Program-made: the position numbers and the translations under genes
Assembly: GCA_047610025.1 (NCBI GenBank)
Contig: JBLFZA010000001.1
Coordinates: forward strand, 1 to 54,779
DNA length: 54,779 bases
Direction of reading: 5' to 3'
Source: Bradymonadia bacterium
Lineage (GTDB): Bacteria; Myxococcota_A; Bradymonadia; REDH01
Shown here: positions 11,597-45,955 of the stretch, piece by piece
How the letters are laid out: each line of letters begins with the position of its first letter
How positions within the stretch are numbered: the stretch's first letter is position 1
The notes under the pieces: model-generated
The model's database searches: none
The model's input: the letters and a program-made list of their open reading frames with translations, nothing else
Told to the model about the DNA's origin: nothing

Positions 11597-11610
11597 GACA
11601 TTGAGTCCGA

Positions 11611-26275: not shown

Positions 26276-26608
26276 GGTTTGTCCAACTCTGGTTTCGATG
26301 TTGCCGCCCGAGGCCGCGGGATAGCGGGCCGAAAGCAGACATCCTTCAGACACTGAATGCTGAAGTAACCTTGGGTGGTTCGCGACAGAATCTCGACAAA
26401 GCTGGAAATCGGCAAGTTGCCCAGATTTTTCTGCGAGCTGTAGCGATTTGGCCAGACGTTGGCCGGATGACTCGGTTCTTGACAATGGGTCTCTGACGCA
26501 CCGTTTGGAGTGTTCTTCAAAAAAGTCAGCTGCCTGCGTTGTTCGCCTGCGATCCGTACGGTAGTGTACAGATATAGTCAGACACCCTTTTGTCGCTTTG
26601 GAGCTGCA

Positions 26609-29600
26609 ATGAACTCTCGTCCCCTCTGTCGTGCTCTCAGCCTATGCTTGCTGACGTTGTTCGCGTGCTCCGATGAGCAGGTGAGCGAGCCCTCAACAGA
26701 CACCGGCCTCACGCTATCCGACGTGGACGAGACGCGAGACGCCAGCGTGGCCTCGCTGATTGAGGACGCGGACCTGGCGATCGAATTCGAAGGATCGTGG
26801 GACCCCGCGACCGGTGTGTTCGATATCGCGCCGGTTCGAGTGATGACCATGGGGCTCGACTTCGACGAAGCCACAGGGGAACTGAGGCGTTCCGAGCAAG
26901 GCCTCTATTGTGCGATTCGCACGAGCGCTGGTGTGCGTGACACACTTGTTCTGTCCACGGACCCTGCGACGATTGGTACTCACGCGGATGGACCGACAGG
27001 CCCCTGCGGCGTCGGTGGCGCTCCATTCAACCTCGCCTACGACAGCCCACTGGCGTCAGGCGCTCTGTGTGCAGAGGTCAGCATTCGCTCGAGTTTCGAG
27101 TCGCTTGAGCTGACCAACGTGCATGCGATGATCACTGAGATCAGCAGCGAACCCAATCGCGCCTACACGTATGCGGAGTTCCTGACCCTCGGCTTAGGAA
27201 ACGGCGCACCGTCGCCTATCGGCTTTGGAGCGCCCAGCGACCAGTTTGGAGGGCTCTTCTCCTACGGGTCCATCGCTCCGGCGGCCACGTCCGCGGAACG
27301 GTGGGTGTTCCGTTATGACGGCCAGGTGTTCACGTTCAGCGGGATACTCAAGGCGACGATCGTAGAGTCGTGCAATGGCTTCGATGATGACTGTGATGGC
27401 ACCGTGGATGAAAGCTCAGGCTGCTACCCCAATGGCGACCAGTGCCTGTCAGACGCCGACTGCCAGAGCTCGTTCTGTGACGCTTCCATTCGCCAATGCG
27501 ATGGCAGCCTGCTGCCGGAAGATTGCACGAATGGCGTAGATGACAACGGCGATGGCGACATCGATTGCCTCGACCGGCGCTGCGCCGGTTTGGACGGCTG
27601 CGCCGATTTCGGTTGCCTTAATGGAAATCTCGGAAGCCCGGTGTCGATCTTCGACCCGGGCGGCGCGAGCATGAGCGTCGTCGTTGGCGACGACGCCAAA
27701 ACCGTCTCTGAAGAGTTCTCGGACTTCAGCCTCGTGAACACGCAGTGTGGCTCGAACTTCGCCGGCGCCGAGCGCGCTTTCCTGTGGGAAGCCCCGGTGG
27801 CCGGCGACTACCGATTCGCTGGAATGAGTGACGAGTTTGATGTCGCGCTGATCGTCACGCGCGCCGCAGGCTGCCCCTTCGACCTCGACGCTGATTTCGA
27901 TGATGTGCGCGCGAGCTGTTCGGACAACGTTTCAGGCATCGGTGGCGAGAGCGTTGCTCTGAGCGCAGCCGCGGGCGAGACCTTCGTCGTCATTGTCGGT
28001 AGTGCTGTTGCCTCGGACGACCCGCTTGGTTTTGGCGACTTTGAACTCGTCGTCGAGAAGACCTCACTCTGTGGTGATGGCTTCCACGATCCCTACAGCG
28101 ATTTGGTCGGCACACCAGACGAGTTCTGCGACGACGGCGGCGCATCGGCGACGTGCGATGAAGACTGCACCGAGATTATCTGCAACGACGGCGTCATCAA
28201 TCAGGTGATTGAGTCCTGCGAAGACGGCAACGCCGTCGCGACGGACGGCTGCTCGGAACTTTGTGTGACAGAGGTCGGCTGGGACTGCTCGTTGATAGGC
28301 CAGCCTTGCACCGAGATTTGCGGTGACTCGCTGATTGTCGGCGGCGAAGGCTGTGACGACGGCAATGATGATGGCGGCGATGGCTGCCCTGTCGACTGTA
28401 ACGCGGTCGAGTCGGGTTGGGACTGCACCGCTCCTGGCGTCGCGTGCGACGAAGTCTGCGGCGATGTGCTGCGCGTCGGCGCGGAAGCCTGTGATGACGG
28501 CAACTTCGTCGATGGCGATGGCTGCACACTTGACTGTCTCACTGTCGAGGACGGCTACCGCTGCCCTGGCGCGGGTGGTGTGTGCACGGACATTGATGAG
28601 TGTGCAGAGGCGTCGGACGACTGCTCCGAGAACGCGGCGTGCACGAACTCGGTTGGGTCGTTCTCGTGTGTTTGCAACTCCGGGTTCAGCGGAGACGGCG
28701 TCGTATGTGGGAACATCGACGAGTGCGCCGGCGGATTGGACAACTGCAACGCCGACGCCACCTGCACGGACACCTCGGGCTCGTTCACATGCGCCTGTAA
28801 CTCCGGGTTCAGCGGAGACGGCCTGATCTGCGCGGACATCGACGAGTGCCTGGGCACTCCCTGCGATGCTGATGCGCTTTGCGCCAATGGCATTGGAGAC
28901 TTCGCTTGCACATGCAATGCGGGTTACAGCGGCGACGGCGTCGTCTGCGACGACATCGACGAGTGCGGCGAAGGCACCGACAACTGCGCGGCGAACACGA
29001 CCTGCAGCAACTTACCCGGCACGTTTGGGTGCGCTTGCGCGCCAGGCTTCGAAGGCGACCCGCTCGTTGGGTGCACGGACATCGATGAGTGTCTGGCGAA
29101 CCCATGTGATGGGTCGGCTAGCTGTTTGAATGTTGTCGGCGGCTTCTCTTGCACCTGTGGCGCCGGGTACGTTGGCGACGGGTTCACCTGCACCAACGTC
29201 GACGAGTGCACCGAGGGCTTGGACAACTGCGGCGCCAATAGCGCGTGCACGAACCTCGACCCCGACACGGACGGCGCGCCGTTTGAATGCGGCTGTCTCC
29301 CCGGCTTCGATGGGGACCCGATAGCGGGGTGCGCGGACCTCGATGAGTGTGTCTTGAACACGGACAACTGCAGCGATAGCGCAATCTGCGCGAACACGGT
29401 GGGGGCGTTCGCGTGCACCTGCTTACCGGGCTTCGTCGGAGACGGTGTGTCGTGCGGCGACCTCAACGAGTGTGTGACCGGCGACAACGACTGCGACGGC
29501 AACGCTACCTGTCAGAATACGACGGGCGACTTCCTCTGCATCTGCAACCCTGGGTTCCAAGGCACAGGCGACGTCTGTACGGACCGCGACGAGTGCGCGG

Positions 29601-31744
29601 CGAGCGCGGACGACTGTTCGGCTGACGCGACCTGCGCGAACCTCGACTACGTTGTGGAGCCGAACCCGTTCACCTGCACCTGCAACCCCGGCTACGGGGG
29701 GGATGGCGTGACGTGTGGCGATCTGGATGAGTGCACGCTGGTCACCGACGACTGCGATGCAAACGCGAGCTGTAGCAACAACATTGGTGGCTTCACGTGC
29801 TCCTGCGCCGCGGGCTACACGGGCACCGGCCAAGTCTGCACAGACGTGAACGAGTGCCTGACCAACAACGGCGGGTGTCTTGGCAACGCCATCTGCAACA
29901 ACTCGCCGGGCACGTCGAGCTGTTCCTGCCCATCGGGCTACGAGTTAGCGGGCGACGGTGTGAGCTGTGTCGACCTGAACGAGTGCACGCTCGGTACTGA
30001 CAACTGCTCGGCGGACGCGACGTGTTCTAATGCCGCTGGAGGATTCACTTGTGGATGCAACACTGGATTCTCCGGAGACGGAGTGACGTGCGCCAACGTG
30101 AACGAGTGTTCGGTAGGCACCGACAACTGCAACTCGAACGCAGCGTGCAGCGATTTGACCCCTTCGGTGGGTAATGGCTTCGCCCGCTTCGCTTGCGCGT
30201 GCAACACGGGGTACAGCGGGGACGGCGTCACGTGTCTCGATAACAACGAGTGTTCCCTCGGCACGGACAACTGCGCTGACGCGGCGATTTGTACCAACAC
30301 GCCGGGTGCGTTCACGTGTGACTGCCGCGAAGGCTTCACCGGTAACGGCCTCAACTGCACAAACGTGAATGAGTGCGCAGCCGAGACAGATAACTGCCAC
30401 CCCGATGCTGGCTGCGCAGATGTGGTGCCCTCCGTCGGGAACGGCTGGGATCGCTTCTCTTGCACGTGCAACAGCGGTTACAGCGGGGACGGTGTCACGT
30501 GTAACGACATCAACGAGTGCATCGGTGACCCGTGCGGTATCGGCACGACGTGTACGAACACGGCGGGCAGCTACACGTGCCAGTGCACCACGGGTTACTC
30601 GGGTGGAGATGCCTACGCGGCTGGTTGCTACCCAGTTTGCGGCGATGGTTTGGTGCGGACCGGCCCTGGCGCGTCCGGGAACCAGAACTCGGAGCAGTGT
30701 GACTATGGTCAGGGCGGCGTTGATGGCCCCGGTGCTCCGGCATGTGAGAGCGATGGCGGGTGCGGATACTGCGACTCAAACTGCGATAATGCGGCGACCA
30801 GCGTCAACGCCACGGGGTGTGACAATGGCTACGTCGACGACGACGGCGACGGCGACCCCGACTGCGAAGATTCGATCTGCAGCGGCGTGTTTGGCTGTTA
30901 CGCGTGGGTGTGCAGTCAGATTGACGACTTCATGACCCGTGAGGGCACGAAGTCCGGCAACCTCAGCGGCAACGACTACGCGTTCCAGTACCCCTACAGC
31001 TGTAACCCCTACAACTGTAACGCCTACGATTGTAACTCGTACTCTTGCGGATGGAATGGTTGGAGCACTTGCTACAACACCTGCTACAACACCTGCTACG
31101 ACACCTGCTACGCGCAGCATGGGGACGACTACTCCGTGCTCTTTCAATCGCCGAATCAGTACCGCAATATCGAGGTCGAGACCGTTACACCGACGGCCTT
31201 CGACACCTACATGTTTGTGAATCGTGACGAACGTATGTGTGGTGGGACATCGGCCGATCACTCCGACGATGATGGCGGTGTTGGTTCTTTGTCGCGCATC
31301 ACGTTCGCATCATGGCGCGCCACGCAAGTGCACACTGTGGTCGTTGAGGAGTACCGAACAAACTCGGCTGCTGCCGGCGCTGCGGTGACTGTCGACTTCG
31401 ACGTTCAGGGATGCCAGGGCGGTTTCCAGACGGACTGTAATGGCGTCTGCCAGCCCTCCACTTGGATTGGCAACGGAACGTGTAACGATGGTCAGGTCGC
31501 GTACCAGACGGGTGACGTCAACGCTGATTTCCGCTGTGGCACGTCGTACACTGGCGAGGTCTGTGACTGTACGGGCAACGCTCGCGGGGAGTGCGGCCAG
31601 TCGACGTCATGCGCACAGCAGTCTACGACGTGCTGGGACCTTTGGGGCGCATTCAGCTGCGATGAGCATCGCACGCGACAATGCGACAATTGTGGATGTG
31701 GTCAGTGCACCGGCTGGTCTGGTTGGTCTGGCGGTGGATGCTAG
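26609..31744 (+). CDS. Giant exported lipoprotein with cysteine-rich myxobacterial repeats and 16 tandem calcium-binding EGF-like domains
   Basis: Lipoprotein signal MNSRPLCRALSLCLLTLFAC. C.DG.D.NGDGD.DC modules are present, plus about four CGD...E.CDDGN...DGC repeats and 16 copies of D/N-x-D/N-E-C...C.N..G.F.C.C..G[FY].GDG..C. The C-terminal region has a C/Y/N micro-repeat and a beta-sandwich-like module. Confidence 0.9.
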   Translation: MNSRPLCRALSLCLLTLFACSDEQVSEPSTDTGLTLSDVDETRDASVASLIEDADLAIEFEGSWDPATGVFDIAPVRVMTMGLDFDEATGELRRSEQGLYCAIRTSAGVRDTLVLSTDPATIGTHADGPTGPCGVGGAPFNLAYDSPLASGALCAEVSIRSSFESLELTNVHAMITEISSEPNRAYTYAEFLTLGLGNGAPSPIGFGAPSDQFGGLFSYGSIAPAATSAERWVFRYDGQVFTFSGILKATIVESCNGFDDDCDGTVDESSGCYPNGDQCLSDADCQSSFCDASIRQCDGSLLPEDCTNGVDDNGDGDIDCLDRRCAGLDGCADFGCLNGNLGSPVSIFDPGGASMSVVVGDDAKTVSEEFSDFSLVNTQCGSNFAGAERAFLWEAPVAGDYRFAGMSDEFDVALIVTRAAGCPFDLDADFDDVRASCSDNVSGIGGESVALSAAAGETFVVIVGSAVASDDPLGFGDFELVVEKTSLCGDGFHDPYSDLVGTPDEFCDDGGASATCDEDCTEIICNDGVINQVIESCEDGNAVATDGCSELCVTEVGWDCSLIGQPCTEICGDSLIVGGEGCDDGNDDGGDGCPVDCNAVESGWDCTAPGVACDEVCGDVLRVGAEACDDGNFVDGDGCTLDCLTVEDGYRCPGAGGVCTDIDECAEASDDCSENAACTNSVGSFSCVCNSGFSGDGVVCGNIDECAGGLDNCNADATCTDTSGSFTCACNSGFSGDGLICADIDECLGTPCDADALCANGIGDFACTCNAGYSGDGVVCDDIDECGEGTDNCAANTTCSNLPGTFGCACAPGFEGDPLVGCTDIDECLANPCDGSASCLNVVGGFSCTCGAGYVGDGFTCTNVDECTEGLDNCGANSACTNLDPDTDGAPFECGCLPGFDGDPIAGCADLDECVLNTDNCSDSAICANTVGAFACTCLPGFVGDGVSCGDLNECVTGDNDCDGNATCQNTTGDFLCICNPGFQGTGDVCTDRDECAASADDCSADATCANLDYVVEPNPFTCTCNPGYGGDGVTCGDLDECTLVTDDCDANASCSNNIGGFTCSCAAGYTGTGQVCTDVNECLTNNGGCLGNAICNNSPGTSSCSCPSGYELAGDGVSCVDLNECTLGTDNCSADATCSNAAGGFTCGCNTGFSGDGVTCANVNECSVGTDNCNSNAACSDLTPSVGNGFARFACACNTGYSGDGVTCLDNNECSLGTDNCADAAICTNTPGAFTCDCREGFTGNGLNCTNVNECAAETDNCHPDAGCADVVPSVGNGWDRFSCTCNSGYSGDGVTCNDINECIGDPCGIGTTCTNTAGSYTCQCTTGYSGGDAYAAGCYPVCGDGLVRTGPGASGNQNSEQCDYGQGGVDGPGAPACESDGGCGYCDSNCDNAATSVNATGCDNGYVDDDGDGDPDCEDSICSGVFGCYAWVCSQIDDFMTREGTKSGNLSGNDYAFQYPYSCNPYNCNAYDCNSYSCGWNGWSTCYNTCYNTCYDTCYAQHGDDYSVLFQSPNQYRNIEVETVTPTAFDTYMFVNRDERMCGGTSADHSDDDGGVGSLSRITFASWRATQVHTVVVEEYRTNSAAAGAAVTVDFDVQGCQGGFQTDCNGVCQPSTWIGNGTCNDGQVAYQTGDVNADFRCGTSYTGEVCDCTGNARGECGQSTSCAQQSTTCWDLWGAFSCDEHRTRQCDNCGCGQCTGWSGWSGGGC
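28589..30628 (+). repeat. Array of 16 tandem cbEGF-encoding units (~120-140 bp each)
   Basis: I counted these units: DIDECAEA, NIDECAGG, DIDECLGT, DIDECGEG, DIDECLAN, NVDECTEG, DLDECVLN, DLNECVTG, DRDECAAS, DLDECTLV, DVNECLTN, DLNECTLG, NVNECSVG, NNNECSLG, NVNECAAE, DINECIGD. Some nucleotide stretches recur exactly, for example aactccgggttcagcggagacggc twice. Confidence 0.9.
31070..31111 (+). repeat. 12-bp tandem repeat (tgctacaacacc x3.5) encoding CYNTCYNTCYDTCY
   Basis: Direct reading: units at 31070-31081 and 31082-31093 are identical, 31094-31105 has one substitution, and a partial fourth unit follows. Confidence 0.9.
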
Positions 31745-34215
31745 TCGAGTCCGAAATCACGTGCGCGGCGGGCCTTAATGCCCGCCGCTTTTCGTTCGGC
31801 CTGACGGTATGGCTGCTCATCCAGGCTCTCGCCGTCGTGATGCTCTCAGCATGCTCGAGCGGCGGCCGGTCGTCTGACGATGTCGTGATTGGCGTGCCGG
31901 ACCTCGATGCAGGCCAAGACAGTCTTCGAGATCCAGAGGACTCTCTCGGGCCGCTGCCTGATGCAGGGGACGATGCGCATGACGTGACAGCCGTTGACGG
32001 CGATAGCGATACAGATGACCGCACGGAACCCGATGTCGAGAACCCTTGCGGCTGTTCACTCGAGGAAGTGTGTGTCGCGGGTGTCTGTCGCACCGCGTCG
32101 CGGGGAGGCTGTAAGCTTGGGGAGGTGCCTACGCTCGATGGGCGCTGTTTGTTAAGGTGCGAGGACTCATCGACCTGCGCGCCGGGGTCGTTCTGCGAAG
32201 AGGGACGATGTTCGTGGGGCTGTGAAGCCGCCGCTGATTGCGGCGCGAACGAGCAGTGTGAGCGCGAGGCGTGCGTAGCGAGTTGCGGTGAGCGGAGTCC
32301 TTGCGCTGCCGGTCAGTGCATCGCGGGCGTTTGTCGGGCGAGTCTCTGTGCCTCTGACTGCGGCGCGGGCGCGCGCTGCGTCGACGAGGTCTGCATCGTT
32401 ACGGGGGATCGAACTTGCGACGCGGAAGAGCAGTGCGCTCGGTCTGAGCGTTGTATTGACGCAGAGTGCCAGTCGGTCGCTGGAGAGGGTGCGGTTTTCG
32501 CAAGCATCGAGTCTGGTCTGGACTTGCACAGATTCGGTACTGATGGGTTGGACGAATTGGGCTTCGGAGGAGCGATTGCGCCAGGCGATTTTGACGGAGA
32601 TGGAGACATCGATTTGGCGCTCGCCATCGATTTGAACGGAGACGGGTGCGTCTACTGGAACAGAGATGGGCGATTCGAGAGAGCCGGTGCTACCTGTAAT
32701 GAGTGGACGAACGGTGAGTCGCTGAGCAGCGCAGACCTCGATGGGGACGGTCGGGATGAGTTACTGATCGGACGAGTCGGGGGGGTAGGGCTGTTTTCGC
32801 CCGCGGATGGCATAATGCTCGTGGAGCTCGACGTCATTGATGAGGGTTCTGGCGCGCCAATCTTCGTGGCGAGTCTGCTGCCGTTTGATGTCGATGCCGA
32901 CGGTCAGTGGGAGTTGTTGGCTGGCACGAGCATCGTGCTCACTCAGCCAGGTGACCGGATAGCTCGGGCGCCGAACTTCGTCGTGTCGGTCGGCACGTCG
33001 CCTTGGTCATTGACTGTGGATGACCGGCACTATGGCTTCGAAGATCGCGGCCAGGCAAACACGTTTGCGGTCTTCGATTGGGATGATGACGGCCTCCACG
33101 AGGTCATGATCGTGAACGACAGTTTCAGCTCCGATACTGCCCGCAATACAAGCGAACAGCCGGGGCTGCTCATGACGGTTGGGTTTCCTGGCTCTTCAGA
33201 TGTCTGGGCTGCGTCGCCAATTCTACCCGATGAGAAGGCCTGGGGCTCGTTCATGGGCGCCGTATGGACAGCGTGGAATGGACACGATGGGTTGTACTTG
33301 ACCGACCGAACGTCGAATCGATTTTTAGTTTGGGAAGGTACGGAGTTCGCCGTTGATCTCGGCGCGGCGTTCAATCTTCTGGTCGATCGCGCGGGTCCTG
33401 CTGATAGCGGGCTATTCAGCTGGAGCGTCATTTCCGCCGATTTCGATTTGGACGACGACGAAGACCTGCTGATTTCTCAAGGGTCAGCCGAGCTCGGAGT
33501 AGGGAGCACCGAACCGTGGCATCAGACGACGTTGCTTATCCAAAATCCATCGGGAGCAGCCGCGCGAATTGAGGGAGGCTTCGGGTTTAGTTCGCCGGTC
33601 GATCGGCTGAGCGATGAGGTTTTTCGGTATGCGTCGTCAAGAGCCGCGCTGGCGCTGGACCTCGACGCCGACGGTCGGCTGGAGGTCGTCATGACCCACC
33701 TCTTCGGCGCCGTGGAGCATTATGAGGAAGTGGGCGACCCGTCGCGTTGTGCGGTGCTGGCTCGCTCGCGCGTCGTGCTGGCGGCTGGCTGGGGCGTCGA
33801 TTGGGCGCCGGCGCGTGGCGCCCGATGGCGGCGCTCCAACAACTTCGGTCACACCTTCTCGTCGCCTGGGCCAACCATCGTCGCGGATCGACGCTCGGGG
33901 GTGGTGCGCTTCCCCAGCGGCGCCGTAGCGTCTTTCGATTGCGAGGCCGATCAGCAGCTGATTGTGGAGCCGGATTGGATTGCGCGAGAGACGGGCTCCG
34001 GCGATTTTCGCATCGATGCTGCGGTGCTTGAACTCGGAGAGATCTACACGATAGCCGCGGTGATTCGGTTCGCCGACGGCACCGCCCGTCAAGGCACGGC
34101 GACTAGGGATCCCCAGACCGGGTTGTGGCGGGTGACGGACGCGTCTGCTGAAGACGATATCATGCTGCGCATCAACGGCCGCTGGGTGCGGCGCTGGTGG
34201 AGCGGGTCCCTCTAG
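31738..34215 (+). CDS. Lipoprotein with N-terminal cysteine-rich repeats and FG-GAP/VCBS beta-propeller repeats (CRTAC1/ASPIC-like architecture)
   Basis: ATG 31738 overlaps the stop of the upstream gene. Signal and lipobox: RRFSFGLTVWLLIQALAVVMLSAC. An acidic linker is followed by multiple C..g..C...C motifs. FG-GAP Ca-binding loops: DFDGDGDIDL, DLDGDGRDELL, DVDADGQWELL, DWDDDGLHEVM, DFDLDDDEDLL, DLDADGRLEVV. Confidence 0.85.
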   Translation: MLVESEITCAAGLNARRFSFGLTVWLLIQALAVVMLSACSSGGRSSDDVVIGVPDLDAGQDSLRDPEDSLGPLPDAGDDAHDVTAVDGDSDTDDRTEPDVENPCGCSLEEVCVAGVCRTASRGGCKLGEVPTLDGRCLLRCEDSSTCAPGSFCEEGRCSWGCEAAADCGANEQCEREACVASCGERSPCAAGQCIAGVCRASLCASDCGAGARCVDEVCIVTGDRTCDAEEQCARSERCIDAECQSVAGEGAVFASIESGLDLHRFGTDGLDELGFGGAIAPGDFDGDGDIDLALAIDLNGDGCVYWNRDGRFERAGATCNEWTNGESLSSADLDGDGRDELLIGRVGGVGLFSPADGIMLVELDVIDEGSGAPIFVASLLPFDVDADGQWELLAGTSIVLTQPGDRIARAPNFVVSVGTSPWSLTVDDRHYGFEDRGQANTFAVFDWDDDGLHEVMIVNDSFSSDTARNTSEQPGLLMTVGFPGSSDVWAASPILPDEKAWGSFMGAVWTAWNGHDGLYLTDRTSNRFLVWEGTEFAVDLGAAFNLLVDRAGPADSGLFSWSVISADFDLDDDEDLLISQGSAELGVGSTEPWHQTTLLIQNPSGAAARIEGGFGFSSPVDRLSDEVFRYASSRAALALDLDADGRLEVVMTHLFGAVEHYEEVGDPSRCAVLARSRVVLAAGWGVDWAPARGARWRRSNNFGHTFSSPGPTIVADRRSGVVRFPSGAVASFDCEADQQLIVEPDWIARETGSGDFRIDAAVLELGEIYTIAAVIRFADGTARQGTATRDPQTGLWRVTDASAEDDIMLRINGRWVRRWWSGSL

Positions 34216-34274
34216 GCTCGGGTGTTCAAGCGGAGGTCAGCCTACACTGCCGGCTGCGTACGCCTCTCGGAGCG

Positions 34275-35993
34275 CTACGGCGTCCGTTGATAGCCGCGCT
34301 GAGGCGTTCCAGGGAAGGTGGACTCGCTGTTTTGTCCGAGGTAGCCGAACACTCCGCTGGTGGGGCTCGCCTCGCCGAGGTCGACGCGCTCGACCTGCCA
34401 GTAGCCGTCGCCCTCTAGGCGAACAAAGAAGCCTTGGAAGCTCGCAGCGATGAGCTCAATGCGGCCATCGCCGTCGAGATCGGCCACTGCGGGAGTGGAC
34501 ATGCTTGTTCCTGGCATCTCCCGGAGCAGAACCATCTCGTTCGTTTCGCCGCGGTACATCCAGAGGTCGGCCGTATTGGGTGTGTCAGCGAGCCCGGTTG
34601 TCGCAGAGCCTGCAATCAGAACATCCGTTCGTCCGCCTTGGTCGAGGTCGAGCGTAATGGCGGAGTTCCAGGGGAAGTACTCGAACATCGGCTGCTCGAG
34701 GATGGGCGTACCGTCGACGCCTGAGAGGACCGCAACGGCGCCGCCGGTGTAAGTGGGATAGACGCCGCGCATGTAGCAAACGAATACATCCGGAACGTCG
34801 TCTCCATCGAAGTATCCGATGCCGGGCGTTGTATAGGACTCGTGGTTTTCAATCCTGTGGGCCCAAAGCGGTTCGTATGTGGCCCCGTCGACCACCGTTG
34901 TTGTTTCGAGGAAGGCGGATACGACGATGTCCAGGATACCGTCGTTGTTAAGGTCTGCCAGCACGGGAGGAGCCATGATCCCGCGCCCATCTCCGCTCAA
35001 GACGAGCTGCCATTCCGCTGTCTCGGGGGCAGCATCGAACGACGCGAGAGGCAGTGACCAAAGCGAGCCCGGCAGCGTCTCGCCGCCGGTTCCAACGAGC
35101 AGGACGTCTTCTTGACCGTTGTTGTGCACGAGAGGCGTCATGTACGTTTCGGCGCCATCCGGCATTTGGCCGCGCCACAAGATCGCGCCGTCGGCACCGG
35201 AGAGAAGCAGCAGCTCGCCGGCGGGCCGGGGCTCGAAGGGAGGGGCGGCGCCATTGCCGCCATTCGTTGCCACCACCTCGGGGTAGCCATCACCGTTACG
35301 GTCGGCGATTATCTGGGGCGTGCTGAAGTTCAGCCAGCCGAATACGAGCGGGTTACTGCCCGTCTCCCACTGCCAAATGACAGATCCATCATGGGTAGAG
35401 ACCGCGAGAAGCTCGCCGTTTCTGCCCCCGATCACGGCGTCCTCGATACCATCGTTGTTGAGGTCGCCGAGTGTGGCCGTGCCGACAAGCTCGTAGCGCG
35501 CTGGTGTTGTCCACAGCGGCTCACCCGTCGCGCCGGAGAGCGCCACGATCGCGTTGGCCTCCTCGTCGACGACATACTTTTCGACGCCGGTGCCGAAAAT
35601 GATGTCGAGCACACCATCGTCGTCGATGTGTACGAGCCGTGGGCTCGAGAAAACATGCTTTTCCCCGGTCGCCGTCCACGCGACTTCGAGGGAGGGTGGA
35701 AACGGCACAGGCTGTCCAGCGTCCCTCTCTGTATCTGGAACGACGTCCTGAACGCTGTCAGCGACGTCTTGGCTGTCGGCGGACAGGTCCTCGACGTCGA
35801 CATCCGGCTCCGGCGCATCTGGCCCTGCCTCAGCCGTGTCGAGGGCATCATCCTGCAGGTCATCGTCGTTGAGGTCACTCACCTCGGCGTCTTGGGCGAC
35901 ATCGACAGGCGTCTGCTCAGAGTCGCTTGAGCAGCCGGAGAGAGCCGCGGTGGACACGACGACAACGAGCCGTCGAAGCGCTAAGGAATACAC
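34275..35993 (-). CDS. Lipoprotein with FG-GAP / PQQ-like beta-propeller repeats
   Basis: I prefer GTG 35993, which gives (M)YSLALRRLVVVVSTAALSGC, a canonical-length lipoprotein signal; ATG 36041 is the alternative. An acidic linker follows. Repeats: DDDGVLDIIFG, DLNNDGIEDAVIGG, DRNGDGYPEVVA, DLNNDGILDIVV, DLDGDGRIELIA. Interleaved with L.ALSGATGEPLW-type motifs. Confidence 0.85.
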   Translation of the reverse strand: MYSLALRRLVVVVSTAALSGCSSDSEQTPVDVAQDAEVSDLNDDDLQDDALDTAEAGPDAPEPDVDVEDLSADSQDVADSVQDVVPDTERDAGQPVPFPPSLEVAWTATGEKHVFSSPRLVHIDDDGVLDIIFGTGVEKYVVDEEANAIVALSGATGEPLWTTPARYELVGTATLGDLNNDGIEDAVIGGRNGELLAVSTHDGSVIWQWETGSNPLVFGWLNFSTPQIIADRNGDGYPEVVATNGGNGAAPPFEPRPAGELLLLSGADGAILWRGQMPDGAETYMTPLVHNNGQEDVLLVGTGGETLPGSLWSLPLASFDAAPETAEWQLVLSGDGRGIMAPPVLADLNNDGILDIVVSAFLETTTVVDGATYEPLWAHRIENHESYTTPGIGYFDGDDVPDVFVCYMRGVYPTYTGGAVAVLSGVDGTPILEQPMFEYFPWNSAITLDLDQGGRTDVLIAGSATTGLADTPNTADLWMYRGETNEMVLLREMPGTSMSTPAVADLDGDGRIELIAASFQGFFVRLEGDGYWQVERVDLGEASPTSGVFGYLGQNSESTFPGTPQRGYQRTP

Positions 35994-38900
35994 TGGAAGC
36001 CTCCAGCTTCGTTGTCTCGACAGAGGGCCGGAGGAGCACATTGATCCCCGCGCTCAGTGGGATCGCAGACGGTATCGAGCGGGAGCTGTGTGGCACACAT
36101 TCCAGAGCCGTCGCAGTAGTCGCCCGCTTCGCAGTCGAAGCTGAACGAGCAGCCGCTGTCCTCCGGCGTCCAGCACGCGATGCCGTCAAATTCGTCGTCT
36201 CGACACTCAAGGTCCTGCAAACATTGAATCGCTGACAGGCCTAACGTGCACGCGTCTCCTTCGGCACTTCGCGGCTCGCACAGGCCGACGCTGCACCACT
36301 CGCCGTCGACACAGTCTGAGTTGGCAAAACACGAGCCAACCTGAACGCATCGCCTACTCGCGTCCGGAAGCTCGGCACAGAAGTAGCCGAAGTCACAGGC
36401 GCCCTCCGCTGGGTTATCTGTGCAGGCATCGCCGGGAGCGAGTCGTGCGCGACAGGTCGCGCCCGGCAGCGGCGTCAAGTCTGGAGCCAGTGGGCTGCAC
36501 ACCGCGCCAAGTTCACAGCGTGGATTCTCTTCGCACGAGTCGCCGATTGCGATCGTTTCGTCGGGCGGAGAACAGACATCCCCTGGCCCGTCTACCGCGG
36601 GAATGCAGACGAACCCCGGCACACACTGCCGTGTCGTTTCAGACGAGTAGCAGGGTTGGCCAATGCTGCCCGCTCGCGCACATTCGCCGAGTCCGCCGAC
36701 AGAGTAGCCGACACAGTCGGTGTTGCTGGGACACGTGACCACCGCGTTGTCGCAGGGGTCACCCTCCGCCGCGACCGGGTTCAGGCATCGCCCTCCATCG
36801 AGCGGTATTATGGCACACAAAAGGTCCGCGACGCAGCTCTCGGCAACTCCGGGTGCGCAGGTCTCGCCTAGCTCGGCCTGAGCGACGCACTCGCGATCGA
36901 GACACGTCAAGCCCAACGCGCATTCGGATTCGAGGGGGGGGCCACATTCGTCACCTTCCGCCAACTCGCTAGGGGTGCAGACGAGCGCCGCAGCGTCGCA
37001 AACGAGATCTGGCAAGCAGTTCGAATCGAAGAGGCATCCAGTGCCGCGATCGCCCAGTGAGCGCCCGGTCACGGCGAGACTTCCGCTACCCGTGCCCTCC
37101 GCCACTTCGACAAATACAAACACACGCTCGCCTTCACGCAGGACCGACGACACCTCGGCGCCGCCGTCTACCGACACACTGCACTCGAGCTCGGTCGCGG
37201 AGCGCTCACACGAGCGTCGAGTGTAGATAACGGCGGAGTCTGCGCCTGCGCTTGCGCGGAAGCGGTAGGCTCCGGGCCCGGGCGCGCTGAACTCAAAGAC
37301 GGCGTCGGTGAGTCCGCCAGGACCGCAGCTGCCGGTCGAGGTGTTGACGGAGTCTGTGGTGTCGAACCCGACCAGGATGCCTCGGTCGCCGAAGACATCT
37401 CCGCTGTCCGGTCCGAGAACGTTCGGCGAGCCACAGCTCCCAGTCCCAGCGAATTCACAGGCGCCGATGCCGTTACAGAAGAGGCCGGGGCCGCAGCGAG
37501 AAGATTCGCCATCGACATCGCAGAGCTCAGCTTCGCCCGCGATGGGGATCTCCCGCACCATGAGGTCTAACGGCCCGTTCGCGCCGATAAACAGCAGAAT
37601 CGGCTCACCGGGAGCGGCGGGGGTCTCGAGCGTCGCACCTAACCCTGTGACAGCCTGGGCGCATCCGAGTTCGCCGAATGTTTCGCCACAGGTTTCGCCG
37701 AGCGCGATGACGATGTCAGCGTCGACGGTGGAGCTGCTGGCAGAGAATTCGATCCACGCCGCCGCCGCCGGTTGGTACGTCAGGTAGATTCCGCTCGGCA
37801 CGTCACCGCAGAGTAGGTCCGGCGCAGGAGCCGCCAGAACGCTCGTCGACCAGGCCCCGCCTCCCCCATCAACCGGAGTAAGACGGATTTGCAGGTCCGC
37901 CGGATTCAAGCAGCCGGTGCCGGCGATGGCCTCGCAGATATTGCCGAGGCACTCCAGAGAAGTGTCGCAGCTGAGCAGGCCGTCCAGCGGGTCACCGCAC
38001 GCTTCCCCCAAACCTGCGAGATCAGCCTCGGGGAGAGTGCAAGTGGCATCCAGGCAGAGCGTGCTGATCTCGCAGTACACGTCGAACTCTCCGCTGATGC
38101 ACGCGTCACCAAGAGTCGCGATTGCCCCCACCGGTTGTGCCTCGATCACGACAATCCCCTGGGAGGTCCGCGCAGAGTCCATGGAGAAGACGTATGTGGT
38201 CCCGGCCTCAAGCGAGACGAGGACCGCGCCGCGGTCACCCACACCGTCCGTTGCCGAGCACGCCAATTCATCCTCCGGCGCGCAGCTGGTCCCGACGCTG
38301 ACTGTGACGGGGATGTTCGTACCGCGTCCATTAGCGTTGATCAGCCAGATGCCCGAACTCGGAGGCACGAACTCGACCGCGACATCGAAGCCTTCGCGAT
38401 CGATGCAGGTCGGGACACGGTCATCGAGCGCTGTCGCGTTGAGACTGAATTGGAACCGCAGTCCGTCACCTGAGGTGACCGCCCCGGCGTTGAAGTCCTG
38501 TACCGCGAGTTCGCCGAGACACCGATCGGTCGTGCAGTTCGCCCGGCAACGCTCGCCGCCATCGCACTCCTCATCGGTATCCAGCACGCTGTCGCCGCAG
38601 CCTGCGATTTGGCAATCCAACCGGCACGCGTCGGCGTCGGTGTCGCTGTTGGTGTCGCCGTCATCACACGACTCACCGGCATTGAGTTCACCGTCTCCGC
38701 ATTCGCCAGCAGGGCAGAACTGGACGCAGTCGGGATCATCGCAGTCCGTGCGACCGTCGCCGTCGTTGTCGATGCCGTCATCGCAGACCTCGACCGACGG
38801 TGGACACAGTACGTCGTTGTCCGCGCAGTCATCGTCTTCGCAATCCACCAGACCGTCGTCGTCGTTGTCGACACCATCATCACAAACTTCAATCTCTGGC

Positions 38901-39439
38901 GCGCAGCCTGCATCAGCATCACAGTCGGCGTCTGCGCAGTCGGTGTTACCGTCGCCGTCGTTATCGACGCCGTCTCCGCAGTCCTCGTCAGTCAGGGTCT
39001 CGCAGGCGGGTTCTGCCGCACAGTCGGTGTCATCACAATCTGCGTTGCCATCGCCGTCGTTGTCGACGCCGTCGTCACAGAGTTCGATCGCCGCAGTCTC
39101 TGTTGCGCAGATTGCTGAGCAGCCATCGCCGCTCACGGTGTTGCCATCGTCACAGGCCTCGTCGCCCGCGACGACATCGTCGCCACACATCGTAGCGCAG
39201 ATGATCTGGCCACCGAGTTCGGAGCACGTCCAGCCGGCTTCTGATGTACACGTGAGGGAGCACCCATCGCCTGGGAAGGCGTTACCATCATCGCACGTCT
39301 CGTCGCCTTCGACAGCGCCGTCACCGCACGTGGGATCCGGTTCGGAGTCCCCGCAGGCCGCAAACACGGCGACAGAGCACAAGAGCAAGAGGCGCAGCAG
39401 GCAGGCTTGAGTCAATGTCATCTTCATCTTTCGATTCAC
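35981..39439 (-). CDS. 1152-aa cysteine-rich exported lipoprotein
   Basis: Signal MNRKMKMTLTQACLLRLLLLCSVAVFAAC. Contains CGDG..E.CDDGN..DGC repeats, four C.DG.DNDGDG..DC.D.DC modules, three Cys-framed beta-sandwich-like modules and ~10 C-terminal four-Cys repeats (G[DE].C....C..gl.C....C). Confidence 0.9.
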   Translation of the reverse strand: MNRKMKMTLTQACLLRLLLLCSVAVFAACGDSEPDPTCGDGAVEGDETCDDGNAFPGDGCSLTCTSEAGWTCSELGGQIICATMCGDDVVAGDEACDDGNTVSGDGCSAICATETAAIELCDDGVDNDGDGNADCDDTDCAAEPACETLTDEDCGDGVDNDGDGNTDCADADCDADAGCAPEIEVCDDGVDNDDDGLVDCEDDDCADNDVLCPPSVEVCDDGIDNDGDGRTDCDDPDCVQFCPAGECGDGELNAGESCDDGDTNSDTDADACRLDCQIAGCGDSVLDTDEECDGGERCRANCTTDRCLGELAVQDFNAGAVTSGDGLRFQFSLNATALDDRVPTCIDREGFDVAVEFVPPSSGIWLINANGRGTNIPVTVSVGTSCAPEDELACSATDGVGDRGAVLVSLEAGTTYVFSMDSARTSQGIVVIEAQPVGAIATLGDACISGEFDVYCEISTLCLDATCTLPEADLAGLGEACGDPLDGLLSCDTSLECLGNICEAIAGTGCLNPADLQIRLTPVDGGGGAWSTSVLAAPAPDLLCGDVPSGIYLTYQPAAAAWIEFSASSSTVDADIVIALGETCGETFGELGCAQAVTGLGATLETPAAPGEPILLFIGANGPLDLMVREIPIAGEAELCDVDGESSRCGPGLFCNGIGACEFAGTGSCGSPNVLGPDSGDVFGDRGILVGFDTTDSVNTSTGSCGPGGLTDAVFEFSAPGPGAYRFRASAGADSAVIYTRRSCERSATELECSVSVDGGAEVSSVLREGERVFVFVEVAEGTGSGSLAVTGRSLGDRGTGCLFDSNCLPDLVCDAAALVCTPSELAEGDECGPPLESECALGLTCLDRECVAQAELGETCAPGVAESCVADLLCAIIPLDGGRCLNPVAAEGDPCDNAVVTCPSNTDCVGYSVGGLGECARAGSIGQPCYSSETTRQCVPGFVCIPAVDGPGDVCSPPDETIAIGDSCEENPRCELGAVCSPLAPDLTPLPGATCRARLAPGDACTDNPAEGACDFGYFCAELPDASRRCVQVGSCFANSDCVDGEWCSVGLCEPRSAEGDACTLGLSAIQCLQDLECRDDEFDGIACWTPEDSGCSFSFDCEAGDYCDGSGMCATQLPLDTVCDPTERGDQCAPPALCRDNEAGGFQCIP

Positions 39440-39466
39440 GAGCTAAGGAACCAGAGAAGGCAGGGA

Positions 39467-40858
39467 CTAATCGGTCACGAAGGTGTCGCTGATTACGACG
39501 CCGGCTCCGCTCACGGGCGACACACAAGGTGTAGACGCTCGCAACGTGCTGGCCGTGATGGCAATCGGATCCGAGACGGCCAGATCCGCACGGTACACCT
39601 GCACAGTGCCAGTGCGGCCGCTGCCAAAGACGAGGCCTGCCCCATCGCGGCGGACGTACGCGTCGCGCTCGGAGGGGCTGGACGTATAAGTCTGCATTTG
39701 ACCGGTCGTTATGTTGAGTCGGCGCAGCGCTGTGATGCCGTCGCCCGAGGCGACAGAGTAGAAGAGCAGTTCGCCCGTGGGGTCGATTCCGAACGCGCCG
39801 CGCATACCGGTTGCCGTGGTCAACTGGATCGGAGTGGCGCCGTCCGCGAGAGTGTCGATCGTGAAGACCTCGACGCCGCCGTCGGCGTCGGAGACATAAG
39901 CGAGGCGCCCATCGTTGATCCACCTCGGGTAGGTGTCCGCGGTGTCGTTGTCGGTGAGCGCGACGAGCTCGGGCGTCTCCGCGTTGACGTCGAACAAGTA
40001 GATCTCGTTGTCAGCGTCTTCGTCGCTGCGTCCGTTCAGAGCGATCTCGCCTCCGACGGGGGCCCACGAGAGATTCTCAAAGATCGTCAGCGGAGCGAGC
40101 GAAAACTCCTCCGGCTGCCCCGTCGTCACGTCGACAACGACCAAAGCACGCTCGGCGCTCAGTGTGAACGCAATGAACGCTAAGCGCGTCCCGTCGGGCG
40201 ACCAGGTCGGCGAGAACGTGCTGAGGTAGTCGGTGTCCGCGAAGAGCTGCCGGTCTTCGCCGCCGTCATGTGCCGTGATGAAGACTTGCTCGAGTGTGAG
40301 CGAGCTGGCCTGACGAATGAATGCCACCCAGGGGTTCTCCGCGAGAGGAACCACAACAGGGTACGGATCGGTTGGCCCCGTATCGGTCTCAGTGTCGGCG
40401 TCCTCTTCAACATCTGTTTCGGCGTCGGCGTCGGCATCGGTCTCCACGTCTGTGGTTTCAACGTCCGCCACGTCGGGGTCGATGGTGTCGGCGTCATCTG
40501 CGTCCGAGACGTCAGGCACCTCGGTGTCAGCGTCCTGTTCGACATCCCCGGGAACATCGGGCAGCACGTCATCGACGACATCAGTCGTGACATCGGGGAC
40601 AGTCACATCTTCCTCCGCGTCCGCGTCCGCGCCTGCGTCTAACCCAGTGGTGTCTGCCGCGTCGTCTTGCCCGCAGATGCCGAGAGCCGTGCACACTTGA
40701 CCGCTGTTGCAGTCGTCGTTCGACTCACAGGGGCAAATGAGAGTCGTGCACTCGGAGTCAGAGCCGCTGGTCGAGTCGCCACAGCCAATCGGCGCGATCA
40801 ACATCATGACAAGCGCGGGCAGAGAGAGCTGGCGGTACAATCGTGAAGTCATCGGCAA
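39467..40858 (-). CDS. TolB-like (PD40/WD40-like) beta-propeller lipoprotein with a ~100-aa poly-acidic linker
   Basis: Lipobox LIAPIGC and a small Cys knot. D/E/T/V-rich linker at aa 64-162. PD40-type repeats: FSPTWSPDGTRLAFIA, YPRWINDGRLAYVSD and others. Confidence 0.85.
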   Translation of the reverse strand: MPMTSRLYRQLSLPALVMMLIAPIGCGDSTSGSDSECTTLICPCESNDDCNSGQVCTALGICGQDDAADTTGLDAGADADAEEDVTVPDVTTDVVDDVLPDVPGDVEQDADTEVPDVSDADDADTIDPDVADVETTDVETDADADAETDVEEDADTETDTGPTDPYPVVVPLAENPWVAFIRQASSLTLEQVFITAHDGGEDRQLFADTDYLSTFSPTWSPDGTRLAFIAFTLSAERALVVVDVTTGQPEEFSLAPLTIFENLSWAPVGGEIALNGRSDEDADNEIYLFDVNAETPELVALTDNDTADTYPRWINDGRLAYVSDADGGVEVFTIDTLADGATPIQLTTATGMRGAFGIDPTGELLFYSVASGDGITALRRLNITTGQMQTYTSSPSERDAYVRRDGAGLVFGSGRTGTVQVYRADLAVSDPIAITASTLRASTPCVSPVSGAGVVISDTFVTD

Positions 40859-41051
40859 AGGGCGAAACGGCGAAGAAATGAGTGTTCATGCGCAGTCGCA
40901 CAACATCCATACGATACAGGCGTAAACGAATGCGTTGCAAGCCAACGGCACGTTATGACGTGGTTTTCTTTACGAAGGGTGGCTCTGGGCGCCCGTTTGC
41001 GCGCAATCGCCCGCTGAACGAGCGAAAATCACGCTAGCGGGAGGGCCAGTC

Positions 41052-41147
41052 TTAGGCCACGCGTTGGCGACGAGTACGGAGAACCATGCCAAGCGAGACC
41101 AAGACGAACCATAGGCTCGGCAGCGTGCCGGCAGAGGCGCTACATCC
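41052..41147 (-). other. MYXO-CTERM-type C-terminal sorting signal (Gly-Cys, hydrophobic helix, Arg cluster)
   Basis: GCSASAGTLPSLWFVLVSLGMVLRTRRQRVA* follows a long acidic linker. This matches the GC + TM + RRR layout of MYXO-CTERM as I recall it. Confidence 0.7.
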
Positions 41148-44100: not shown

Positions 44101-45002
44101 GTGACGTCCTCCGCCGTCCCGCTGTCTTCTGCGAGCACCCGCACCCGGTTGCATCCGGCATCGTCGTCAAACGAGTAGTCCGTCGCGCCGCGGACGAGGA
44201 TTCCCACGAGCTCACGGGCGTCGTTGAACACGCCTGAGCCCGAGTTGCCGCCGAAGGTGTCGAGGGTGGCTTCGAAGTAGTCCAAGCTGTCGGGCCGCCC
44301 GTCGGTGACGACGCCTCCTTCGTCAACCTTGGCAGGAATGCCGCTTCCGAACCCGATGACGGTCAAGTCGCTGTCGGCGGGCAGCGCGACGTCCACCAAA
44401 TTCACGTTGGCAGGTGTTCTGCCGACGACTGGGCGGTCCAACTCAACGATGGCGTAATCTAGGGTGCCGGCATCGATGGTCACAACAACGGACTCGCATT
44501 CGTACACGTCGTCGGGATCGATCTCCTGCAGGTCGCCGTCGGCTTCGAAGTAGTAGTCGAAGACGTAGAGTTGCGAGCGACATTCGCCGAGGTCCTCGAC
44601 GCAGTGGCCAGCGGTCAGGACGAGGTTGTCATCGATGAGCGTGCCCGAGCAGTTGCCCATCGTCGGATCGTCGAGGAAGCGCTCGTCTGAGCAAAGTCCT
44701 CGAGAGTTTCCGAGCATGTTCCCGAGCGGTATCGCCGTGCCTGCGGGGTCGTCGTCAAAGGCCGTGACGTCGATATCATCCCGCAAAACGAGCGCGACAA
44801 TGGACTGATCGAGCAACGTCTGCAGCGCTGGGTCGGCAACCGCGTAATAGTCGGTGCGGTCATCGTCGCCGTAAACGACGGTCTGTTCCGCGCTGCGTTC
44901 GGCGCTCGGCTGCGAGCCATCGTGAGAGAGCTTGGTTCCTTCACAAGCGAGCAGAGCGGCGCATGCGCTCAACGAGAGAGCGGTCAGTCGAGCGATAGAC
45001 AT
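41052..45002 (-). CDS. Exported trypsin-like (S1 family) serine protease with 15 cysteine-rich repeats, three beta-sandwich modules and a C-terminal MYXO-CTERM sorting signal
   Basis: Signal MSIARLTALSLSACAALLAC. Catalytic triad context: CSGTLIDDNLVLTAGHC (His), DYAIVELD (Asp), GGNSGSGVF (Ser). I counted 15 CGD[GSA]...E.CD[DEA]G...C...C repeats. C-terminus: GCSASAGTLPSLWFVLVSLGMVLRTRRQRVA. Confidence 0.92.
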   Translation of the reverse strand: MSIARLTALSLSACAALLACEGTKLSHDGSQPSAERSAEQTVVYGDDDRTDYYAVADPALQTLLDQSIVALVLRDDIDVTAFDDDPAGTAIPLGNMLGNSRGLCSDERFLDDPTMGNCSGTLIDDNLVLTAGHCVEDLGECRSQLYVFDYYFEADGDLQEIDPDDVYECESVVVTIDAGTLDYAIVELDRPVVGRTPANVNLVDVALPADSDLTVIGFGSGIPAKVDEGGVVTDGRPDSLDYFEATLDTFGGNSGSGVFNDARELVGILVRGATDYSFDDDAGCNRVRVLAEDSGTAEDVTYVRRAIDDLCNNANWPSARLCGASATCGDGVTDEGEECDDNNLDSGDGCSAICSTEFCGDAVIQPGLDEFCDDGNDISNDGCSNTCVVECGNGDIEGDEACDDGNVEDGDGCSATCRQELCPLNDFSLLVGTTTIGDTCDGADVDGVASCGDGTSGGDDGYLFIAPRDGMYSFDTLSESTEFDTVLYARTACGADELACNDDSDLPGADEESSFSLTLDSGDEIVVYVSGFRTNCGDYGLNVSVSPCGDGETTDGEQCDDGNLDSDDGCSALCLLEEPDSCVTEDTVLVLNSPVVLDSCDGENSDNGATCGDDTATSLERSFAFLAPQAGTYRFDTLGDATDMDTVIYSRSECLGDELDCNDDVDDDDTRSLLSLDLNDGEAVIVFVHGFQNNCGVFELLATTDECGNSRLEADEQCDDGNVDDGDGCDADCVFEDVPRCGDGTVDEGEACDDGNDVEFDGCNALCAFDGCLLTATLDFAIGSFVGDSCEFGFEDAPNCGDGEDGAAFPIAFTAPTAGTYTFTTDSDLTDFDTVLTLSESCGGSQIDCNDDTVGRRSELQATLIDNQTVFLAVSGYEGDCGDFELLVTVPGPECGDGVTEGDEDCDDGDENSDITPGACRTDCSAPFCGDGVVDPDEACDEGPANEATADACRPGCELPRCGDSIVDTGEMCDAGETNGNSPDGCRTTCMPAGCGDGVVDSGEACDEGLFNNDEVGDACRTSCTLPSCGDGVIDADEECDDADDNSDEFSDACRADCLLPFCGDAVVDVGEACDEGEANSDDPSATCSFECAAPSCGDGVINGEEECDEGAENADESDSCRTMCTLPYCGDSILDSDEECDAGADNDDLPDVCRLDCRVPACGDSIVDGAEECDDGTDNNDEPGACGLDCAIVPFGPDVEEDAGGDADSDATPDGVTDDVQTDTPTPDAEDGTTDDTGQDDGGEDAESDIMVPDADSAGADTGEADNPEGGVENGDEDSGGSESGCSASAGTLPSLWFVLVSLGMVLRTRRQRVA
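41420..42320 (-). repeat. Nine back-to-back ~33-aa (99-bp) cysteine-rich repeat units
   Basis: The run goes from CGDGVTEGDEDCDDGDENSDITPGACRTDCSAPF to CGDSIVDGAEECDDGTDNNDEPGACGLDCAIV. Coordinates are approximate. Confidence 0.8.
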
Positions 45003-45109
45003 AAGTGGTTCTTAGAGGAACAGAGGGGGCCGAGTGCTGGTGGACAGGCGGCCCAATGGAGCGAGCAGACAACGAGCATCATCCGCGGGTTCTAACGTCT
45101 TCGGTGACG

Positions 45110-45916: not shown

Positions 45917-45955
45917 CGTGGCGCTGGCTCTGCTGCGTTGTGCAGTCACTGGGTT

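Follow-up and report, generated by a model that had tools for sequence, protein, structure and literature searches.

A native, stable array of sixteen calcium-binding EGF domains in a predicted lipoprotein of a Bradymonadia bacterium

Tandem calcium-binding epidermal growth factor (cbEGF) domains are a textbook animal extracellular module, as found in NELL1/2, NEL, Notch1 (EGF11-13 and 20-24), uromodulin, CD97/EMR2 and fibrillin-1. Each unit has six cysteines (C1 to C6) at a fixed spacing, starts with D/N-x-D/N-E-C, carries an Asn or Asp and an aromatic residue in the C3-C4 loop and ends with C-x-C-x2-G-[FY]-x-G-[DN]-G; linkers between units are one residue long. The Asn/Asp of the consensus C-x-[DN]-x4-[FY]-x-C-x-C is a Ca2+ ligand, and the aromatic residue stabilises the neighbouring Ca2+ site in tandem cbEGFs such as those of fibrillin and factor IX/X. 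A second class of Cys-rich protein is represented by the TraA-type surface receptors of Myxococcus, in which a stalk of DUF4215 (Myxococcus cysteine-rich) repeats bears a distal recognition domain (see also PMC5562445). Here we analyze a gene that combines both kinds of module. It lies at positions 26609-31744 (+ strand) of a 54,779-nucleotide stretch of contig JBLFZA010000001.1 from a Bradymonadia bacterium (the window) and encodes a protein of 1711 amino acids with sixteen tandem cbEGF domains.

The units of this protein share with the eukaryotic domains the Cys spacing, the start motif, the loop residues, the ending and the one-residue linkers. The surroundings differ: the protein is bacterial, DUF4215 repeats of the Myxococcota type lie on both sides of its array, a lipoprotein signal precedes them, it has no TB, hybrid, LNR, NOD, ZP, GAIN or seven-transmembrane (7TM) domain, and the modification machinery of the endoplasmic reticulum (ER) is absent. 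Four of its units also contain loop inserts of 5-7 residues. With the TraA-type receptors it shares the phylum and the DUF4215 repeats. TraA, in contrast, lacks cbEGF and combines a PA14-like variable domain with a MYXO-CTERM anchor, whereas the protein studied here is predicted to be lipid-anchored at its N-terminus and ends in ...GGGC.

The cbEGF array spans 28589-30631 (+), as defined by motifs, Pfam, Protein Data Bank (PDB) sequence matches, AlphaFold and Foldseek. It consists of 16 head-to-tail units of 39-48 amino acids each. By motif, units 1-8 start at 28589, 28712, 28835, 28952, 29078, 29195, 29336 and 29459, and units 9-16 at 29582, 29720, 29843, 29972, 30095, 30239, 30362 and 30506 (all +). 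The coordinates 28589-30628, given in a sequence-only reading of this DNA, are in frame but stop one codon short, as the last Cys of unit 16 is encoded at 30629-30631. Every unit opens with [DN]-x-[DN]-E-C, as the same reading had proposed, and contains exactly six cysteines; all follow the spacing C1-x4/6-C2-x5-C3-x8(13/15)-C4-x-C5-x10-13-C6. At all 16 junctions the pattern is C-x-[DN]-x-[DN]-E-C, i.e. a one-residue linker. The strict consensus C-x-[DN]-x4-[FY]-x-C-x-C is present in 11 of the 16 units. The exceptions are units 6, 9, 13 and 15, where 5-7 residues are inserted in the C3-C4 loop, and unit 11, in which Ser replaces the aromatic residue. When position is counted from the nearest Cys, D/N is found at C3+2 in 16/16 units and F/Y at C4-2 in 15/16.

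The units scored far above the Pfam cut-offs for EGF_3 (PF12947; 363.4 bits vs a cut-off of 28.5, E=3.8e-111, 15 stretches) and EGF_CA (PF07645; 292.3 bits vs 27, E=7.1e-89, 12 stretches), and also matched cEGF (5e-68). A phmmer search against all PDB sequences returned eukaryotic EGF proteins only (NELL2 at 1.5e-29, NEL, Notch1, CD97 and uromodulin). Units 4-7 were modelled with AlphaFold2 on the basis of aligned four-unit segments, paralogous as well as orthologous. The model had a mean predicted local distance difference test score (pLDDT) of 91.9 and showed, for each unit, an N-terminal turn and two beta-hairpins. Foldseek against the PDB matched it with probability 1.0 to NEL/NELL2, Notch1 EGF20-24, EGF8-12 and EGF11-13, CD97, uromodulin, EMR2, thrombospondin and fibrillin-1. 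The predicted fold superposed on three-unit crystal structures at 3.6-4.4 Å; for Notch1 EGF11-13 the root mean square deviation was 4.0 Å and the template modelling (TM) score 0.65 over three units. Superposition of the model on solved cbEGF structures implies the disulfide pairing 1-3, 2-4, 5-6. Neither a failure against EGF_CA models nor a non-EGF structure was seen, and a non-EGF bacterial Cys-repeat look-alike was rejected, as Pfam, PDB sequence matches, model and Foldseek all pointed to EGF. We are highly confident that the units are true calcium-binding-type EGF domains homologous to those of eukaryotes.

This homology does not extend to the architecture of particular animal proteins. 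The sequence-only reading had likened the array to fibrillin, Notch and LTBP. In the full protein, Pfam found no TB or hybrid domain and none of the Notch features (LNR, NOD/NODP, transmembrane segment, ankyrin), and the CCC triplet motif was absent. Orthology to fibrillin or Notch was rejected on the lack of TB/hybrid, LNR and NOD domains, and the likeness did not hold up: the best structural matches were NELL2/NEL, Notch1, uromodulin and CD97.

An array of this kind on a bacterial contig could in principle be eukaryotic DNA joined to it by mis-assembly, the more so as some eukaryotic units (from Chromera velia and an amphioxus fibrillin-3-like protein) are 55-60% identical over the matched stretches. 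We give this explanation a negligible chance. The same junctions were assembled independently in at least four runs; the array is continuous, in a single open reading frame (ORF) that also encodes a lipoprotein signal and DUF4215 repeats of bacterial type; and its GC content (0.629), its GC content at third codon positions (GC3, 0.79) and its codon preferences are those of the neighbouring genes. Moreover, 15 of the 16 units have a bacterial nearest neighbour, and a syntenic ortholog (P0001, 52% identity) in another metagenome shares the neighbourhood GlgB-GH57-sigma-epimerase-MerR / FG-GAP-DUF4215. Eukaryotic contamination was rejected on the four-run junctions, the continuous ORF, the host-like codons and this ortholog. 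Thus, the single ORF, the lipoprotein signal, the flanking DUF4215 repeats, the host-like codons, the collinear contigs and the syntenic ortholog establish the array as a native part of this bacterial gene.

The host assignment, to an uncultured marine bacterium of predatory type (class Bradymonadia, phylum Myxococcota), is consistent with this. Over its first 422 residues the protein matches, at 100% identity, a partial NCBI entry of a "Bradymonadia bacterium" metagenome-assembled genome (MAG), and the window content is Myxococcota-like (receiver-Ser/Thr kinase, ECF sigma factor, PilB-like ATPase and secreted DUF4215, FG-GAP and PD40 proteins). At least eight runs labelled "ice metagenome" contain the DNA nearly word for word; its coverage in runs from seawater and sediment is patchier. 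Note that the sole NCBI copy (P0169; window positions 26609-27874) is a 422-residue partial protein on a 5-kb MAG contig. Evidently the repeat region breaks short-read MAG assemblies, and because of this such arrays are probably under-counted in MAG-based catalogues. Three exact contigs from one seawater metatranscriptome run map to 30925-31579, in the 3' part of the gene. Since these contigs are exact, the gene is probably transcribed in situ, with DNA carry-over as a possible other source.

The gene lies in an uninterrupted ORF of 26510-31744 (+), and its start at 26609 agrees with the gene call in the public assembly. The protein contains 175 Cys and is extremely acidic, with 272 Asp plus Glu against 41 Lys plus Arg; in the array alone the numbers are 102 and 4. 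Direct reading placed a signal peptide at 26609..26668 (+; MNSRPLCRALSLCLLTLFA followed by C). The predicted lipobox reads LTLFA-C20, in agreement with [LVI]-x-[GAS]-C near residue 20, and Cys20 is invariant in an alignment of four family members. This signal with its conserved Cys supports the assignment of the protein as a bacterial lipoprotein. A beta-rich N-terminal domain follows at 26669..27370 (+), conserved at 41-55% identity across the four members and without a Pfam match. Next, at 27371..28069 (+), are Cys-rich motifs of the CNGxDDDCDGxxDE type (CNGFDDDCDGTVDE; CTNGVDDNGDGDIDCLD), also invariant in the four-member alignment, with a below-threshold resemblance to a MopE-type metal-binding motif (Pfam E=0.12), and then a region (FLWEAPVAGDYRF) that may adopt a beta-sandwich-like fold. 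The AlphaFold model of the N-terminal 660 residues, built from a four-row alignment, was of low confidence (pLDDT 42.6) and was kept out of the fold search. The array is preceded by Myxococcota cysteine-rich repeats at 28070..28588 (+; DUF4215, PF13948; Pfam 5.9e-22, three stretches, residues 488-660), in which about four CGDG...CDDGN...DGC repeats are discernible by eye.

Downstream of the array, at 30632..30808 (+), is an extra DUF4215-like Cys repeat (PVCGDGLV...EQCD...), which has no Pfam match of its own and is retained in all three relatives in the C-terminal alignment. The same alignment delimits a C-terminal module at 30809..31741 (+), composed of a second Cys motif (CxxxDDDGDGDxDCxDxxC), a beta-sandwich-like domain split by a Tyr/Cys-rich insert, and a Cys-rich tail. 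The insert is rich in Tyr, Cys and Asn (NPYNCNAYDCNSYSC...CYNTCYNTCYDTCY), is encoded at 30990-31111 by two short stretches of tandemly repeated DNA (periods of 15 nt, x3.1, and of 12 nt, x3.8) and is absent from the three relatives. The protein ends in ...GWSGWSGGGC without a hydrophobic or basic tail, unlike a MYXO-CTERM sequence. A scan of the protein against NCBIfam gave no match.

The family to which the protein belongs has four members: the protein itself, P0001, P0002 and P0003. They share the lipoprotein signal, the N-terminal 660 residues (41-55% identity) and the C-terminal module with its Cys motif and beta-sandwich, and differ in the center. P0001 has 16 cbEGF units, as does the protein studied here. 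P0002 has the same end modules, but its center consists of three cbEGF units and an F5/8 type C (discoidin) domain. In P0003, again with the same end modules, three cbEGF units are followed by at least 14 Sushi/CCP repeats (523 bits), and the protein has a MYXO-CTERM-like tail. The simplest reading is that the center of these proteins is an exchangeable cassette, serving as an elongated spacer or for interaction. This swapping of cbEGF, Sushi/CCP and discoidin cassettes between conserved end modules makes the family a source of moderate interest. Searches for further members with the full protein and with its N-terminal 487 residues returned only five and one matches, respectively, from a word index that saturates on Cys-rich words. 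A profile search of genome and metagenome contigs with the family alignment turned up nothing in MAGs of Myxococcota beyond generic matches to CNGxDDDCDG or DUF4215, and no further orthologs emerged from these contig scans.

We then considered how stable the array is. According to the sequence-only reading, the units were similar enough at the DNA level, by exact 24-nt recurrences, to permit recombinational expansion and contraction. This was overstated. Exactly one such recurrence exists (28676 and 28799, in units 1 and 2) and none is longer; the codon-aligned DNA identity between units averages 57% with a maximum of 71%; and Tandem Repeats Finder reported no array for the cbEGF region. The ortholog P0001, the one protein available for comparing array length, also has exactly 16 units, and their subtypes follow in the same order. 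In both proteins units 3 and 5 are 39 residues long, units 4 and 6 end in GDPxxGC, and units 6 and 9 carry a loop insert. Identity between the two proteins is 60% for units at the same position and 47% otherwise. The best cross-protein match is the same-position unit for units 1, 2, 4-8, 10 and 16, and units 7 and 8 reach 80-83%. Because of this matching 16-unit succession, the array must be older than the split between the two species and has kept its length. Contigs of four independent metagenome runs were collinear through the array with 0-1 differences, and these assemblies, which do drop rare variants, contained no indels or variants in unit number.

A contingency-type repeat that grows and shrinks by recombination between units would fit the single 24-nt match. 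It would also fit the last third of the array, which is not one-to-one with P0001: only units 13-15 look reshuffled, and units 13 and 15 are each other's closest match within the protein (71% DNA and 67% protein identity). Given the mean divergence of the units, the blank Tandem Repeats Finder result, the ordered 16 units of an ortholog at 52% identity and the four indel-free assemblies, we regard such behaviour as very unlikely. Read mapping did produce candidate joints implying deletions of 96-3263 nt. These were rejected as 21-44-nt partial matches of unrelated contigs: foreign letters lay between their two sides, and the cross-matches came from other EGF genes and from a low-complexity GGCGAC word. 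This hexamer is repeated at 30827-30867, where it encodes DGDGD of the Cys motif; it is very common, reaches a word depth of ~600-7900x in every metagenome and draws spurious joints. Thus, the units are old and diverged, and their number is stable; the earlier proposal of expansion and contraction was not borne out.

Uninterrupted cbEGF arrays had also been taken as a hallmark of animal matrix proteins. We used the array to scan 1.84 billion representative proteins exhaustively with HMMER; this yielded 28,102 matches at E<=1e-3 and 2,315 at E<=1e-30, with eukaryotes and bacteria mixed among the best 150. Sorting these 150 into bacterial and eukaryotic by amino-acid composition was abandoned, as GC-rich eukaryotes (Chromera) overlap with bacteria, and the cases cited here are restricted to named or contig-supported matches. 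Named eukaryotic matches include Chromera velia proteins, an amphioxus fibrillin-3-like and a coral ADGRE1-like protein. Among the named bacterial matches are Myxococcota MDQ3036035.1, Myxococcales MDH5672520.1 (26 EGF_CA stretches and RCC1 repeats), the Polyangiaceae "EGF domain-containing protein" HEX2730178.1 (~18 EGF_CA stretches or motifs) and WP_146959289.1 of Microvenator marinus, a cultured member of the Bradymonadales with a 5.85-Mb genome. The last, named "EGF domain-containing protein" in RefSeq, has 12 EGF_CA stretches and bacterial Ig domains, and its cluster includes a MYXO-CTERM member. About 15 further matches, on contigs of ~5-880 kb, have lipobox N-termini or MYXO-CTERM-like tails.

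Like the protein studied here, WP_146959289.1, HEX2730178.1 and MDH5672520.1 are secreted proteins of the same phylum with long uninterrupted arrays (12, ~18 and 26). They differ from it in their end modules (RCC1 propellers, subtilisin, bacterial Ig, MYXO-CTERM tails) and in lacking the 660 N-terminal residues of its family. Long cbEGF arrays of 12-26 units are thus recurrent in Myxococcota, already annotated and uncharacterised, and cannot be considered an animal hallmark. In the literature we found no description of cbEGF proteins in Myxococcota.

Individual units of the array reach 50-75% identity with units of eukaryotes and 52-75% with those of further bacterial proteins. We compared 281 units, taken from 14 proteins of bacteria and 7 of eukaryotes, excluding each unit's own protein from its neighbours. 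The nearest neighbour came from the same domain of life for 81% of units, against 53 ± 8% (maximum 78%) in 300 protein-level label permutations, with a eukaryotic sample that was small and chosen for similarity to the query. The bacterial nearest neighbours of the 15 units mentioned above belong to other Myxococcota EGF proteins. This result agrees with units that are homologous to eukaryotic cbEGF and then diversified within Myxococcota, and disagrees with convergence and with recent, repeated imports. Host-like codon usage of the array likewise argues against a recent transfer. Where lateral transfer and convergent expansion had been offered as alternative origins, homology to the eukaryotic domains stands and independent invention falls.

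The strict consensus in 11 of the 16 units had further been read as a mark of Asp/Asn beta-hydroxylation. The pattern itself is present, but it says nothing on hydroxylation, because the same residues are the Ca2+ ligand and packing aromatic that define a cbEGF. If the units were substrates of a bacterial AspH-like 2-oxoglutarate (2OG) oxygenase and carried beta-hydroxy-Asn/Asp, the PROSITE-type pattern in 11/16 units here and 12/16 in the ortholog would be accounted for, yet as the structural core of the domain it is expected anyway. No PF05118 or AspH-like family was detected by Pfam in the 45 window ORFs of at least ~116 amino acids, nor was a PF05118 protein in the gene list of the ortholog locus. 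AspH requires its TPR domain and a substrate form with a non-canonical Cys3-4 disulfide (PMC6817910). The human enzyme needs Fe(II) and 2OG and acts in an oxidising compartment, human factor VII carries the consensus and is not hydroxylated, and no effect of hydroxylation was observed (PMC6817910). In a Gram-negative cell, disulfides would form after export, away from cytoplasmic 2OG. We attach very little probability to hydroxylation of these units. The eukaryotic O-fucose pattern C2-x4-[ST]-C3, present in 8/16 units, illustrates that such motifs persist without matching enzymes. In the window we saw a single domain of a protein-modifying oxidase type, the FGE-sulfatase domain of a formylglycine-generating enzyme-like protein (560 amino acids, 12019-13701, +); it is unrelated to AspH.

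What the array does is a matter of prediction, and with moderate confidence we favour a surface-exposed, adhesin-like lipoprotein with a Ca2+-stiffened, disulfide-rich cbEGF stalk. The protein would leave the cytoplasm through Sec, receive its lipid at Cys20 and become oxidised in the periplasm. One Ca2+ would sit at each junction, held by the D/N-x-D/N-E motif together with the Asn/Asp in the C3-C4 loop. Since the linkers are one residue long and the Ca2+ sites complete, the 16 units would, by analogy with fibrillin and Notch pairs, lock at marine Ca2+ concentration into a stiff, protease-resistant rod, and the model of units 4-7 superposes on Ca2+-bound Notch1 EGF11-13. From known fibrillin and Notch cbEGF pairs we estimate that the rod may be some tens of nanometres long. 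It would hold the Cys-rich C-terminal module off the cell, serving as a spacer or as a surface for interactions. The protein may belong to an apparatus for surface adhesion or cell contact, and its gene lies beside those of secreted FG-GAP, DUF4215 and protease proteins. Asp/Asn hydroxylation would be neither needed nor expected in such a rod.

Several points weigh against the stalk. We found no published experiment with a cbEGF protein of bacteria. That the protein binds Ca2+, has the expected disulfide pairing, is lipidated, is exposed at the surface and forms a rod is in each case a prediction, and 'adhesin' is a guess from the architecture and the neighbours, made beside an N-terminal model with a pLDDT of only 42.6. 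In addition, the way conservation follows unit position may just as well reflect ligand binding by single units, which would then not be a passive spacer. The main rival takes up this point: the array may be mainly a surface for ligand binding or mimicry, with units that bind prey or eukaryotic (algal or protist) surface molecules in the manner of Notch, NELL or uromodulin. Position-specific conservation between the orthologs, highest in units 7 and 8, is compatible with such a role, as are the loop inserts of units 6 and 9 that are conserved in the lineage, the other eukaryote-type binding modules (Sushi, discoidin) that relatives place at the same position, and the receptor-binding nature of the EGF proteins with the nearest solved structures. 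However, conservation of units is expected for a structural rod too, no partner is known, and no binding site was identified from sequence. We consider this rival plausible though rather unlikely. A broader scenario deserves little credence. Here, predatory marine Bradymonadia would shuffle a eukaryote-derived matrix and adhesion toolkit (cbEGF, Sushi/CCP, discoidin, FG-GAP, ankyrin) as cassettes, and the rod would engage sea-ice algal, protist or prey surfaces, perhaps hydroxylated by an unlinked bacterial oxygenase.

The genes downstream of the predicted stalk protein, from 31681 to 47971, form a run of secreted repeat proteins. The first encodes an FG-GAP/VCBS-type repeat lipoprotein (31681..34215, +; Pfam FG-GAP_3 5.7e-10) and overlaps the stop codon of the cbEGF gene, of which it is a possible operon partner. 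An FG-GAP gene occupies this downstream position in the P0001 locus and on the P0002 contig as well. In the comparison with its P0001-locus counterpart, only a 34-residue motif aligns (E=2e-5); with sequences that are barely alignable, a conserved partnership was not accepted and we claim no functional link. The run continues on the - strand with an FG-GAP/PQQ propeller protein (34275-36041), a DUF4215 protein of 1152 amino acids (35981-39439), a PD40/Tricorn-like protein (39467-40858), a trypsin-like protease with five DUF4215 repeats (41052-45002) and an FG-GAP_2 protein (45956-47971). Elsewhere, the window encodes a PilB/T2SSE-type ATPase fused to cNMP-binding and MshEN domains (3258-5666, +) and a Ser/Thr protein kinase with an N-terminal response-regulator receiver domain (10166-11869, -). 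An 842-residue protein at 52211-54739 (-) joins a GH113 glycoside hydrolase domain to a long region of ankyrin repeats, a repeat typical of eukaryotes.

In conclusion, what is known of EGF chemistry is unchanged, and RefSeq already annotates such proteins as "EGF domain-containing protein". The array described here is a well-supported case of a textbook animal extracellular module in native, stable bacterial use. It bears on how 96 consecutive EGF cysteines are folded in the periplasm without ER chaperones or hydroxylation, and on the traffic of domains between eukaryotes and Myxococcota. With its 12-unit relative, the cultured Microvenator marinus provides an entry point that could show the role of Ca2+-stiffened EGF rods on bacteria.

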